DNA from: an uncultured Acidimicrobiaceae bacterium
GTDB taxonomy: Bacteria; Actinomycetota; Acidimicrobiia; Spongiisociales; ZC4RG35
NCBI GenBank assembly: GCA_964617995.1
Contig: CAZTXD010000007.1
Span: 1-49,939 of the forward strand
Length of the DNA stretch: 49,939 nt
Direction of reading: 5' to 3'
This document shows, one piece after another, positions 23,882-49,939 of this stretch. The notes beneath the pieces were generated by a model that was given only the letters and a program-made list of their open reading frames with translations, did no database searches and was not told the origin of the DNA. How positions within the stretch are numbered: position 1 is the stretch's first letter; every line of letters starts with the position of its first letter. The translations under genes were made by a program, and so were the position numbers.

Positions 23882-25045
23882 CTACTCCACCCGCCACACC
23901 CGCCACAGGGCAGCGGGATCCTCCAACGGGTTGCCGTGGACCAGGAAGAAGTCGGCCGGGCCTCTGGATGCGAGCCGGCCGGCGGTGGGTTCCCGCAGCA
24001 GCTCGCCTCCCATCCAGGTAGCAGCTCCTATGGCCCGCCACGGCTCCAGGCCGGCCTCGACGAGGCACTCCACCTCCCACGCCAGGTGATTGGCGCGCAG
24101 CGAGCCGCCACCGAAATCGGTGCCGGCGGCGATGCGCACTCCGGCGCGGGCGGCCAGGGCGAGGCTGTCGTAAGCCCGTTGGCGTCGTTCGGCCAGCGTG
24201 GCCGGGAAGTCGTCGGTGGTGAACCGCTCCACCGTGGTGGTGGACGAGAACGTCTCCCATGAGGACATCACTCCCAGCGTCGGCACCAGGAAGGTGCCCC
24301 GGCGGGACATCTCGGCGGCCAGCTCGTCGTCGAGGGTGGTGCCGTGCTCGATGCAGTCGACCCCGCCTTCCACCGCCGCCCTCGCTCCCGCCAGGCCGGT
24401 GGCGTGGGCTGTCACCGTGAGCCCGTATCGGGCGGCGGCCGCCACGGCCCGGGCCACCTCGTCGGCGGTCCAGGGGGAAGTTTCGGGTTCGGGTCCGTCC
24501 AGGTACAGCTTGATGAGGTCGGTGCCATCGGCGGCTTGCTTCTCGACGGCGGCGACCAGCGCATCGGCGTCCTCGGCCTCCATGTCGATGGTGGGAGGGA
24601 GGATGCCCGCCCTGGCGATCCAGGTCCCGGCCGCCCGCAGGTAGGGGCGGTCGGAACGACCGGCCCAGGTGTCACGAACCCGCAGAGCGAGAGCGGCTCC
24701 GTCCCGGGGTGGGGAGCCGACGTCCCGGAACCAGCGGATCCCCGCCCGTCTGGCGATCTCGCCGTTGTGCTCCGCCACCTCCAGCAGATCCTCGGTGGGG
24801 TCGTCGATGCGGGCGATCCAATGGGCGCCACCCGGGAGGACGGTGTGGCTGTGGGCGTCGACCATCCCCGGCACCACCGTCGCCCCGGCGGCGTCGACCA
24901 CGCGCACCGGACCCGTGCGCTGGGCGAACTCGTCGTCGTGGCCCATCCATGCGATACGGCGGTCTTCGACCAGGATCGACTGGTCCAACAACAGGTCGGG
25001 TCCCGTCCCGTCGGCGAGGGCGGCGTGGCGGTAGAGAGTGTCCAT
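23882..25045 (-). CDS. Amidohydrolase family protein (prolidase/imidazolonepropionase-like)
   Basis: PGMVDAHSH, DLIKLY, TAHA, CIEHG, AAGTDFG, ADFFLVHGNPL. Confidence 0.92.
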   Translation of the reverse strand: MDTLYRHAALADGTGPDLLLDQSILVEDRRIAWMGHDDEFAQRTGPVRVVDAAGATVVPGMVDAHSHTVLPGGAHWIARIDDPTEDLLEVAEHNGEIARRAGIRWFRDVGSPPRDGAALALRVRDTWAGRSDRPYLRAAGTWIARAGILPPTIDMEAEDADALVAAVEKQAADGTDLIKLYLDGPEPETSPWTADEVARAVAAAARYGLTVTAHATGLAGARAAVEGGVDCIEHGTTLDDELAAEMSRRGTFLVPTLGVMSSWETFSSTTTVERFTTDDFPATLAERRQRAYDSLALAARAGVRIAAGTDFGGGSLRANHLAWEVECLVEAGLEPWRAIGAATWMGGELLREPTAGRLASRGPADFFLVHGNPLEDPAALWRVWRVE

Positions 25046-25360
25046 CGTTTCAGCCTAAGGGAAGCTCCGGTCGACGGTTCACATCATGCGTGGTGGCAAG
25101 TATGGGGGTCGGAGGCGGCGGATCCACGGGCTGTACGACACGATCCACGCCCAGACCGGGGTTCACCTGGCCGCCTCGCTGGGCTCGGCGGTGACCGTGG
25201 CCCGCCTCGTCTTCATCGCCGCCCAGCCCGTCTGAGACCCCTTCCTTCGGCATCTCAGACGGGAGGACCGATGGATGTCGCCGGTCGGGCAGAAAGCGGG
25301 CAGTTCCCGATCTCATCGACACTGCGGCGGCAGATTCACCGCGGCCGGATCGGCGGAATC

Positions 25361-25382
25361 TGTCACACCCACCCCGTAGCTT
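25361..25382 (+). promoter_or_regulatory. PafBC/RecA-NDp-type promoter motif
   Basis: TGTCAC-N10-TAGCTT, preceded by GAATC as at 22369. Its first 10 nt are identical to the site at 49851. Confidence 0.65.
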
Positions 25383-25386
25383 GAAG

Positions 25387-25769
25387 GTCGGGTGCCCGGT
25401 GTGCCGGTGGGGCGAGCCGGGGCCGGTATGCCGGGCACCTCGACTGACGTGTAATGCCGGCTCGTAGGGAAGGGAGGTGGTGCTGTTCGGGATTTGTCCC
25501 GGCAACCCGCGTGATTTAGGTGTAGGCTCGGGGGTCCGGTGGGAAGTCACCGCTCGTGCGTGGAGCCCACGGGACTTGGGGCCTCGTGCTTCGGGTTGTG
25601 GGTGCCGAAAGGCACCCCGGAGAAGGGGGGCTTAAACGCTCTGCTTCTGTTCGGGGGCTCCGCGGACGAGCGGTGCGGTCGTCGAGCCCTGGTTCAGGGC
25701 GGGGGCCACCTGGTCACCGAGCTGTGAAGCAACATGTGGTCGGGACCCCGTCCTCAACGAGGGCTCGAC
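25387..25769 (+). ncRNA. Candidate large structured non-coding RNA
   Basis: Nested long stems with G-U pairs on the + strand, a GAAA tetraloop hairpin, no credible CDS, and a start immediately after a promoter motif (see findings). Confidence 0.6.
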
Positions 25770-27632
25770 TCAGTCCTGGTGGGTGAAGAACACCTCGATG
25801 TCGCGGCCGTGCAGGGGGGCGAACCGGGGCGGGTCCATGAGGGCGTATGGAGGGATGGTGGCCGCCAGCCGGCTCAGGTCGTCGGCGCAGTCGAGGCGCA
25901 ACGCCTCCCGGAGGACGCCCAGATGTGGCGCCTCGCTGTCGACGGGGGAGGGTTTCCAGTACTTGGTGTGGGTGAAAGCACGCCCCGCGGCCCTCCAGGA
26001 CGGGGGCAGTGGAACCTCGCGGTCGACGATCCAGTCGCCGAATCCCGCCACAGATCCACCCACGAAGTCACCGAAGACGCCGCCGCGCACGGGGAAGTAG
26101 AGGTTGGTCCAGCGGGTCACCGAGTAGGGGGCGGCATGATGGAAGAAGAGGAACGTGCCGGTGCGGCCATCCCGGTCCGTGTACGGGCTGTGCCGGAAGA
26201 AGGCGAGACCGTCGGCGTCGCCCCGTTCGTCCCTGATGGGCGGGCACTGCGCCAGCTCCCGGGAGTCGATCTGCTCGTGGAGGGGACGGTCGGTGGAAGC
26301 CAGTAGCAGCTCGGCGTGGGTGAGGGGGCTGCCCAAAGTCACCAGGTCCGTGATGAGCCACGGCTGGGTGGCGCGCCGGCACTCCTGCCAGGCGGCGTGT
26401 TGTCTGGCCTGGGCCCCCTCGGCCGAGCCCGAGAAGGTGTGGAGCTCCTGGGCCCGTTTTCGCTTGGCACGCCGGGGACCGAGGTGGGCGAGATGCATGT
26501 ATGCCCACAGATGGCTGACGATGTCGTAGGCGATGACGCTGCCCAGGCTGTGGCCCACGAGGACGATCCGCTGGTAGCGGTTGGAGAGATGGAGGTCGAG
26601 GAGGAGCCCGACCCCTTCGCTTCGGATCTTGTCCCGCACGTCCACGTTGGCCGGTGATGCGCTCAGGTAGCGGGCGGCGTCCCCCAGGTAGTGGATGAGG
26701 AAACCCGACCCGAGGAGGGAGACGACAGACGAGATCAGCGACAGGGTTCCCGCCAGGGCCTGGAGGTCCCCCGCCCGGGGAGCGACCAGCACCAGGATGG
26801 ACACGGCGAGGACGAGCACCGCTCCCACGACGACGTACCACACGGGGCGGATCTTCTCGGGGACGTCGCTCGGTTTGCGCACCAGCAGATCCACGAGCCA
26901 TTTGAGTACCTGTCCCCGAGTGGTGTCCCGGATGTGATGGGACCAGTAGAACTCGAAGAAGTCAGTCTTGGGGATGTCACCTTGCGCGGCCATCGACAGG
27001 CGCCGCAGCTCGTAGGTGGTGGAGACATGGTCGGGTTTGGAGCGCACCCTGCTGCCGGCTCCCATCACCCCTACCACGAACCGCCGGAGCGTGTCCCCGG
27101 GCACGGGTTCGCCGATGCCGTGGATCACGACCACCGCCTGAGCCGGCTTGCGGCGCTTCTCGATGGTGTCGGTCAGCGAGGAGAGACGGGACAGCGCGGC
27201 GGTCCAGCAGCTACGCCACTCCCCGATGTGCTTGGCGTGTATGTCGCTTTTCGTCCCGTGCTCGGAGATGGAGACGGTCGATCGTTCCTTCTTCGACCCC
27301 TTCGGTTCGACCGACACTGTGAGTGTGGTGGAGAGTCGCCGCCCGCCGGAGACGGTTTCGGTCCGGAAGGTGAACTCCCGGCCGGAGGCGGCTTCGAATG
27401 TGATCAGCCGATAGCGTCCCCCGACCATGTCCACGGCGCCGGAGGCGTCGGGCTGGCGGCCAAGGCGGCAGCCCGAGCCCAGCCACCTGTCCTGGGCTTC
27501 ATGATCGAAGAGGAGCTCTACCGCGTCGTCGACCCCGACCCGCAGGTCGACCGACTCGGAGAACAGCCGTCGTTTCTCGGAGTCGGCTGAGGGGGGGTCC
27601 GGATCGGCGCCGGCCGTTTGCGACTGGTCCAC
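25770..27632 (-). CDS. Membrane-associated lipase-like alpha/beta hydrolase with an N-terminal SRPBCC-like domain
   Basis: VVIHGIGE, two TM helices, GDAARYL, VGHSLGSVIAYD, LVTLGSPL, WTNLY, GDFVGG, HTKYW. The first ~155 aa follow an AHA1/START pattern (QDRWLG...STVSISEHG...WTAALSRL). Confidence 0.75.
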   Translation of the reverse strand: MDQSQTAGADPDPPSADSEKRRLFSESVDLRVGVDDAVELLFDHEAQDRWLGSGCRLGRQPDASGAVDMVGGRYRLITFEAASGREFTFRTETVSGGRRLSTTLTVSVEPKGSKKERSTVSISEHGTKSDIHAKHIGEWRSCWTAALSRLSSLTDTIEKRRKPAQAVVVIHGIGEPVPGDTLRRFVVGVMGAGSRVRSKPDHVSTTYELRRLSMAAQGDIPKTDFFEFYWSHHIRDTTRGQVLKWLVDLLVRKPSDVPEKIRPVWYVVVGAVLVLAVSILVLVAPRAGDLQALAGTLSLISSVVSLLGSGFLIHYLGDAARYLSASPANVDVRDKIRSEGVGLLLDLHLSNRYQRIVLVGHSLGSVIAYDIVSHLWAYMHLAHLGPRRAKRKRAQELHTFSGSAEGAQARQHAAWQECRRATQPWLITDLVTLGSPLTHAELLLASTDRPLHEQIDSRELAQCPPIRDERGDADGLAFFRHSPYTDRDGRTGTFLFFHHAAPYSVTRWTNLYFPVRGGVFGDFVGGSVAGFGDWIVDREVPLPPSWRAAGRAFTHTKYWKPSPVDSEAPHLGVLREALRLDCADDLSRLAATIPPYALMDPPRFAPLHGRDIEVFFTHQD

Positions 27633-49850: not shown

Positions 49851-49872
49851 TGTCACACCCCGGTCGTAGATT
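49851..49872 (+). promoter_or_regulatory. PafBC/RecA-NDp-type promoter motif
   Basis: TGTCAC-N10-TAGATT upstream of an RBS (AGGAGGG) and ATG 49902. Confidence 0.65.
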
Positions 49873-49901
49873 TCGGCTGCACCACGACAGGAGGGAACCC
49901 G

Positions 49902-49939
49902 ATGAAACTGTTCGTCGCCACCGAAGCAACCGATGAAAC
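49902..49939 (+). CDS. Hypothetical protein, 5' fragment (MKLFVATEATDE...)
   Basis: Good RBS, ATG, open to the window end. Too short to assign. Confidence 0.5.
   Translation, partial: MKLFVATEATDE

Follow-up and report, generated by a model that had tools for sequence, protein, structure and literature searches.

The stretch analysed here, called the window below, is a 49,939-nt contig (C7) from the genome of an uncultured Acidimicrobiaceae bacterium (G000; 3.79 Mb in 260 contigs, 66% G+C). A gap of 724 nt separates an amidohydrolase gene (23882-25045, minus strand) from a convergent open reading frame (ORF) of 620 amino acids (25770-27632, minus strand). Within this gap lies a region, 25387-25769, that an initial annotation had described as a candidate structured noncoding RNA (ncRNA) of about 380 nt behind a DNA-damage-type promoter. 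Judged from the sequences compared, the promoter and the hairpin that follows it are a conserved cassette restricted to one Acidimicrobiia family. That the region as a whole is a mosaic, made of an orphaned damage-inducible leader and of terminator-like palindromes rather than of one evolved RNA, is in our estimate about an even call. The features of the locus are as follows.

25361-25382, plus strand: RecA-NDp/PafBC-type promoter, TGTCACAC-CCACCCCG-TAGCTT, with an 8-nt spacer.
25391-25439, plus strand: conserved 5'-terminal hairpin, with an 18-bp stem that includes 4 G-U pairs and a G-rich loop, 8 nt past the -10 element.
25440-25477, plus strand: leader spacer, ending in the Shine-Dalgarno-like GGGAAGGGAGG (25467-25477).
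25478-25545, plus strand: linker with no excess structure, containing a hairpin at 25488-25501 and the start of a 52-amino-acid ORF (25477-25635).
25546-25679, folding on both strands: three-way-junction domain, D3, with a 21- to 24-bp outer stem and a GAAA hairpin (25600-25617) inside it.
25680-25769, folding on both strands: 90-nt hairpin, D4, with 27-nt arms that are 85% complementary.
25770-27632, minus strand: convergent 620-amino-acid ORF, an accessory gene with a GHSLGS serine-hydrolase-like motif and hydrophobic stretches (by eye).

The region is found nearly unchanged on contigs from soil, rhizosphere and groundwater metagenomes (three studies). It is not an assembly artefact, because independent assemblies from the three studies carry the same sequence.

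Among the relatives searched, homologues exist for 25355-25476 only. BLASTN of the whole region against 60 relatives revealed conservation of 25355-25439 alone, in three genomes (G009, G023 and G002); the other 12 matches, of 23-48 nt with E values from 5e-4 to 7e-3, were taken as chance or promoter-only similarity. The unpublished genomes G032 and G039 enter the tallies alone, and none of the conclusions depends on them. An exact-pattern scan located the hairpin in six genome records, and the public records that carry it are metagenome-assembled genomes of Acidimicrobiia or Actinomycetota. Two of the 32 loci returned by a pattern scan of metagenomes (L041 and L043) have a true promoter-linked hairpin; the remaining 30 are either coding sequence or GC-rich palindromes with no relation to it. 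A covariance model of the hairpin alone, R1, from which the promoter was left out, scores 70.4 bits at its own locus (25384-25446) and has 12 matches in the family, spread over 10 of the 151 genomes and 5 of the 38 genera. In an order-wide sample the same model matched 2 of 19 genomes of family f1 and none of 131 from eleven other families.

The initial annotation had proposed checking whether promoter and hairpin occur together in homologues, and they do: the promoter motif, whose background frequency is 3.9e-5 per position, stands upstream of all 13 distinct hairpin copies. The gap between the -10 element and the stem is 6-8 nt in 12 copies (that of L043, 7 nt, was measured by eye) and 13 nt in one. 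The consensus of the module is a 16-bp stem, GGUGCCCGGUGUGCCG/CGGUAYGCCGGGCACC, closed by a G-rich loop and placed 6-8 nt past a RecA-NDp-type -10 element. Loops range from 15 to 28 nt across copies and are always G-rich. Across the alignment of the 13 sequences, pairing is seen in 97.6% of cells. Both sides have changed at pairs 9-66 (GC/AU) and 10-65 (UA/CG), C-G replaces U17-G58 in some copies, the partner of G18 is either U or C, and every copy has the G20-U55 wobble. The covariation is modest, with a score reached by none of 500 shuffles. Eight of the 13 copies came from a pattern that fixes 26 stem positions and five from the model that carries the structure; the invariance of those 26 positions in the pattern-found copies is by construction, because the pattern fixed them. 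Covariation, another check that had been proposed, is thus present for the first hairpin in the form of two compensatory pairs, and for the roughly 290 nt at 25440-25769 it is not assessable because no homologue exists. The variable spacing and the kept wobbles favour, by inference, a hairpin in plus-strand RNA over a dimeric DNA operator.

RecA-NDp (RecA-independent) promoters consist of a TGTC-type box, an 8-nt spacer and a TAnnnT -10 element, and transcription starts about 7 nt past the -10. The 3.79-Mb genome studied here contains 8 copies of the strict motif, where our own estimate from base composition predicts about 0.7, and 58 of a looser form. Ku (PF02735, E 1e-51), a DUF222 ORF and a ComF-like ORF each start 6 nt past the -10 of a strict copy. 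From the geometry of these leaderless genes the transcription start at the locus is predicted at 25389/25390, in agreement with the plus-strand start foreseen by the initial annotation, and the onset of the hairpin is 0-2 nt from this predicted 5' end. The genome has four ORFs with a WYL domain, two of them as a tandem pair on contig C63; their orthology to PafBC is putative. On this sequence evidence the Acidimicrobiia genome does have a RecA-NDp/PafBC-like regulon and the promoter belongs to it, as its initial description as a damage-type promoter implied.

PMC6789036, PMC2897130 and PMC5087735 present RecA-NDp as the damage promoter of Actinobacteria that depends on PafBC and not on LexA. 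The promoter studied here resembles that system in its two-box motif, in its many leaderless targets, which include the repair gene Ku, and in the presence of genes for putative WYL-domain regulators. It differs in its host, an uncultured member of the Acidimicrobiia as opposed to Mycobacterium or Streptomyces, and in its box, TGTCACAC. It differs also in that the copy at 25361-25382 has no downstream gene, and its damage induction and PafBC dependence are predictions.

Two other strict copies deserve mention. One precedes a phage-type integrase gene with a 129-nt leader (G000:C118:4270-5442), and this leader opens with a GC-rich hairpin; this arrangement hints at a mobile element wired into the damage regulon. 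The other lies in the window itself, at 49851-49939 (TGTCACAC-N8-TAGATT), and is followed by a Shine-Dalgarno sequence and an ATG, with a gene that runs off the contig.

In relatives the module is a 5' leader, with different protein genes 11-216 nt downstream; the kinase, the 212- and 374-amino-acid proteins and the PEMT-like, MBL-fold and PEP_hydrolase-like proteins listed here start 11-155 nt past the hairpin. What stands behind the module is varied.

Three genomes: 597-amino-acid histidine kinase (HisKA and HATPase_c).
G023: 212-amino-acid protein with no Pfam match.
A further locus: PEMT-like protein.
Two genomes: MBL-fold hydrolase.
A further locus: 374-amino-acid protein.
G213, contig C11: PEP_hydrolase-like protein, 155 nt downstream.
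G002: Shine-Dalgarno sequence and ATG at about 170 nt, then the contig end.
G209, contig C73: an ambiguous case, with a sole ORF whose G+C content at third codon positions (GC3) is 0.73.

A coding sequence follows the module in nearly all other loci. Under the refuting condition that the initial annotation had named, homologues followed by a coding sequence, the module counts as a leader or the remnant of one. The orthologue of the histidine kinase in G000 (58% identity, on contig C82) lacks the module, which argues that the cassette has been gained and lost before different genes.

At the present locus the leader is followed by no credible coding sequence before the convergent gene, although most other loci of the module have one within about 200 nt. 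The statement of the initial annotation that no plus-strand coding sequence follows is supported. GC3 is flat across 25240-25600, and the three ORFs of the region have no Pfam match. A 70-amino-acid frame found no relative in 1.84 billion representatives, and the 52-amino-acid ORF had no homologue among proteins of 28-91 amino acids. A blastx search of the region against the proteins encoded behind the module at other loci produced no match that rose above noise, tblastn of its frames against G000 returned only the region itself, and G000 has no homologue of the 212-amino-acid protein of G023. Past the hairpin the locus bears a weak likeness to the leaders of G023 and G213:C11, through the Shine-Dalgarno-like GGGAAGGGAGG; the BLASTN match to G213:C11 (72.8% over 136 nt) covers mostly promoter and hairpin. 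Taken together with the neighbours of the module in relatives, this suggests that the leader is orphaned and that its gene was lost. The idea of an orphaned RNA of a mobile element fares accordingly: the leader does appear orphaned, and no mobile element was found in scans of plasmid, phage and viral sequences.

A related locus was noticed in passing. At G213:C11 (L081, 1455-1720) the module is followed by a Shine-Dalgarno-like GGGAAGGGAG with no start codon. The short stretch past it resembles, by eye, the 3' end of the 212-amino-acid gene of G023, as though a deletion had taken most of that gene.

The six stems listed by the initial annotation all exist at their coordinates, as judged from the sequence, a repeat finder and computed folds.

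Stem (i), 25391-25408/25422-25439, plus strand: the continuous 18-bp, 4 G-U stem of the conserved hairpin, extended across one bulge by GTCG (25387-25390) and CGAC (25441-25444).
Hairpin (ii), 25488-25501, plus strand: CGGGA-TTTG-TCCCG.
Stem (iii), 25526-25542/25706-25722: pairable with 2 mismatches and 2 wobbles, absent from the minimum free energy (MFE) fold.
Stem (iv), 25548-25568/25655-25675: 21 bp with one G.G mismatch and one G-U pair, given by the repeat finder as 24-nt arms that are 88% complementary.
Hairpin inside stem (iv), 25600-25617: GAAA tetraloop, GGGTGCC-GAAA-GGCACCC.
Stem (v), 25686-25700: GCCCTG/CAGGGC.
Stem (vi), 25681-25690/25760-25769: perfect 10-bp pairing at the base of the 90-nt hairpin.

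Several details stand with qualification. The outer stem (iii) can pair, but it competes with hairpin (vi) at 25680-25769 and is unused in the MFE fold. Pairing (vi) is perfect over its 10 bp; it was said to end at the stop codon of the convergent gene and ends one base short of it (TCA, stop on the minus strand, 25770-25772). The claim that the G-U pairs work on the plus strand only is correct for the first hairpin and one inner arm of D3. As wholes, D3 and D4 are near-palindromes able to fold on either strand.

On the plus strand the whole region has an MFE of -225.5 kcal/mol (z -7.50, with none of 100 shuffles as good), and on the minus strand -167.3 kcal/mol (z -5.85). Among 662 window-strands (50 kb, regressed on G+C content) the plus strand is the top outlier, with a residual z of -4.8 against -3.0 for the next independent region, and the minus strand is ordinary, at +0.8. 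The excess is unevenly spread over the four domains.

D1, 25390-25445: z -4.2 on the plus strand, -1.8 on the minus strand.
D2, 25446-25545: z +0.8 on the plus strand, +0.3 on the minus strand; no excess structure, with the hairpin at 25488-25501.
D3, 25546-25679: z -7.5 on the plus strand (-89.7 kcal/mol), -6.6 on the minus strand (-64.5 kcal/mol).
D4, 25680-25769: z -5.5 on the plus strand, -4.7 on the minus strand.

The distal domains D3 and D4 are single-copy in G000 and have no detectable relatives. BLASTN of 25436-25790 against 200 family genomes gave only two matches of 33-36 nt (E about 4e-4), taken as chance, and BLASTN of 25470-25775 against 400 genomes of the order gave none. A single-sequence structure model of 25546-25679 (R2) matched none of 150 genomes. 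Compensatory changes across the full 380 nt were not found, homologues being confined to 25355-25476. The claim of one conserved structured ncRNA of 380 nt is accordingly not supported: conservation extends to the promoter, the hairpin and perhaps the Shine-Dalgarno-like stretch, and about 290 nt have no homologue.

The position of these domains points to the convergent gene. Its homologues are scattered, with 33-43% identity and a presence in 7 of 200 genomes of the family, and the two closest that were checked, in G121 and G162, have no similar downstream region. When the post-stop folds of 34 ORFs in the window are ranked by strength, that of the 90 nt past its stop comes third, and comparable post-stop hairpins occur at other genes of the window, including a small upstream ORF (25227-25263). 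D4 is a probable terminator or 3'-end structure of the convergent gene, possibly bidirectional. D3 and D4 resemble intrinsic or bidirectional terminators in being long GC-rich hairpins directly after a stop that fold on both strands; they differ in having no U-tract on either strand, and D3 is a branched structure of 134 nt. Terminators poor in U-tracts are known from high-GC Actinobacteria. A terminator scan reported a single trivial site, at 25627-25642.

The small upstream ORF, which lies in the same 724-nt gap, encodes 49 amino acids (25086-25235, plus strand) and has a high GC3; a perfect hairpin of 11 bp spans its stop (25227-25263). Copies of its C-terminal half (25144-25236) that are about 80-88% identical occur on other soil contigs, which suggests that it is a piece of some longer gene or a paralogue of one.

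If the region is a mosaic, its parts could work as follows. The promoter at 25361-25382 would start transcription at about 25389/25390, straight into the hairpin at 25391-25439. The same cassette would head the mRNAs of various protein genes in the family, and its hairpin may protect the damage-induced transcript from 5'-end-dependent decay or bind a regulon-specific factor. By analogy, 5' protection or factor binding is the most likely role. At this locus the cassette has kept its spacer and the Shine-Dalgarno-like GGGAAGGGAGG without a coding sequence, so that transcription would cross about 70 nt of unstructured sequence and then meet D3 and D4. These, just past the stop of the 620-amino-acid ORF, most likely serve as its terminator or 3'-end structures and also hold up the orphan transcript. 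Firing of the promoter would yield a noncoding run-off RNA of about 290-380 nt.

The analogy is with stem-loops at the 5' ends of mRNAs that guard against RNase attack, which a review describes (PMC7509114), including one in the recA leader of Acinetobacter baumannii. Like these ompA-type and A. baumannii recA stem-loops, the hairpin is stable, lies 0-2 nt from the predicted 5' end and belongs to a predicted stress-induced transcript. Unlike ompA-type stem-loops, it has a stem sequence and two G-U wobbles that are nearly invariant across genera, and it travels with one specific promoter. These two differences suggest sequence-specific recognition beyond 5' protection.

Same-locus strain variants inside the region number four: 25454, 25465, an A inserted after 25469, and 25629. 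Three of them (25454-25469) lie just upstream of the Shine-Dalgarno-like stretch. Position 25375 in the promoter spacer also varies between strains. Variant density inside the region is similar to that of the flanks, with the small numbers (4 variants) to be kept in mind.

Several observations weigh against the mosaic. The stem variant at 25629 (G>A) converts a G-U pair to A-U in an arm of the 25546-25679 domain, and the location of three of the four variants in the linker hints at constraint, with a P of about 0.06 by our own estimate from very few events. D3 is far stabler and more elaborate than a simple terminator would have to be: it folds at -89.7 kcal/mol, branches at a three-way junction and carries a GAAA tetraloop, and one of its inner arms has 5 G-U pairs that form on the plus strand only. 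No U-tract lies behind D3 or D4 on either strand, as would be expected of a canonical intrinsic terminator. On the side of the leader, the lost coding sequence is itself an inference. Similarity past the hairpin is weak: of the local alignments with the G023 and G213:C11 leaders, one is beaten by 2 of 500 shuffles and the other by 14 of 500, uncorrected for 8 comparisons. The stabiliser role is an analogy that leaves the near-invariant stem sequence unexplained. Finally, the missing homologues fit both the absence of function and a young, species-specific function, and cannot separate the two; the genus is represented by G000 alone in the genome collection used.

These points bear most directly on the proposal that the region encodes a real ncRNA of about 380 nt that is structured, inducible by damage and specific to this species. 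The cassette would have been captured to drive this trans-acting or protein-binding RNA, with the three-way-junction domain as its core. We regard this as possible but doubtful, with fold energy as the positive evidence for it. The region is the top folding outlier of the window on the plus strand only (z -7.5), and it combines a GNRA tetraloop, long helices and a wobble-rich arm specific to that strand with a credible inducible promoter and no coding potential. Strain variants avoid or preserve its stems. According to PMC6789036, no small RNA had been linked to the PafBC response. Against it, 25440-25769 has no homologue in anything searched and hence no covariation support, the middle 100 nt are unstructured, and almost everywhere else the conserved part serves as a leader. 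D3 and D4, moreover, fold on the minus strand too (z -6.6 and -4.7), at the expected terminator site of the convergent gene.

Such an RNA would belong to no known family, as the initial annotation had supposed. Rfam 15 gave no match in the whole window at gathering thresholds. With E up to 10, 25000-25900 gave three noise matches, of which MIR168 ranked first with 18.5 bits where the cut-off is 66. ARAGORN found no tRNA or tmRNA. The region resembles Ms1, 6S, raiA, HEARO and Y RNAs and group I/II introns in its size range and its high predicted structure, and differs from all of them in having no match at gathering thresholds.

A bolder form of the same proposal, which we consider unlikely, holds that the hairpin is a regulon-specific RNA signal, either a ligand or feedback element for a PafBC-type WYL protein or the site of an RNA-binding protein, and that the cassette has been co-opted for a functional, highly structured and damage-inducible RNA of about 380 nt. 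The WYL domain has been described as Sm-like. If true, this would be the first ncRNA in the LexA-independent damage response of Actinobacteria.

Under another reading the promoter is a damage-induced antisense or interference promoter that directs RNA polymerase into the 3' end of the 620-amino-acid gene and lowers its expression by collision or antisense pairing, with the palindromes modulating read-through. Positions 25361-25391 are identical (31 of 31) to a copy at G000:C174:5377-5407 (minus strand) that has neither hairpin nor coding sequence and points, across about 160 nt, at the 3' end of a convergent PIN/VapC-like ORF, so that two of the 8 strict promoters share this arrangement. Two cases may be coincidence. 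The RNA downstream of the C174 promoter has no excess structure (z -0.6), and two very stable hairpins ahead of the target gene would tend to halt read-through; we think an antisense role quite improbable.

It is very unlikely that the distal palindromes are DNA-level elements without RNA function, such as a mobile-element relic or an inverted repeat used in recombination or replication. They are near-perfect inverted repeats on both strands, the neighbourhood is accessory (a DUF2786/DUF7168 gene and the sporadic 620-amino-acid gene), and a different family of palindromic repeats abounds in the genome. Yet they do not behave like miniature inverted-repeat transposable elements (MITEs) or repetitive extragenic palindromes (REPs), being single-copy with no target-site duplication in the flanks by eye, although an assembly in 260 contigs may under-represent repeats. 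Neither D3 nor D4 has a match in plasmid and phage collections, and viral contigs contain no match to the hairpin pattern or the D3-arm pattern. Three viral matches to the 10+10-nt pattern of D4 have unrelated interiors and were dismissed as chance.

The other palindrome family comprises about 100 near-perfect palindromes of about 54 bp across G000, with arms of 24-31 bp, a 4-nt loop and the core CCGTTTTCGCGCATCGAATGCGCGCYATRGCGCGCATTCGATGCGCGAAAACGG (for example C22:22934-22999, C3:4078-4143, C6:1-56 and C39:26854-26907). They often lie exactly at contig ends, and the family looks REP- or MITE-like and probably breaks the assembly. D3 and D4 have no sequence relation to it.

A small protein encoded after the leader, by the 52-amino-acid ORF behind the Shine-Dalgarno-like GGGAAGGGAGG or by a 62-amino-acid ORF at 25539-25727, is hardly credible: the Shine-Dalgarno-like sequence does stand directly before a GTG (25477/25480) and the 62-amino-acid ORF has a GC3 of 0.81, but besides the negative Pfam and homology searches there is no paralogue in G000, the GC3 of the 52-amino-acid ORF is about 0.63 (our own count) against 0.8-0.9 for genes of this genome, and the ORFs run through long stems.

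Of most use is the conserved part, an uncatalogued 5' hairpin that has no match in Rfam and accompanies a RecA-NDp/PafBC-type promoter before unrelated genes within one Acidimicrobiia family. The orphan copy, a promoter and leader that naturally lack a gene, could be used to probe the role of the hairpin. If the distal domains are real RNA, the locus would provide a damage-inducible ncRNA in a little-studied lineage. The distribution of the cassette among sequenced relatives suggests that promoter-plus-leader cassettes move between genes. It also suggests that in some Actinomycetota the damage regulon independent of LexA includes post-transcriptional control, which may act through transcript stabilisation or factor binding.

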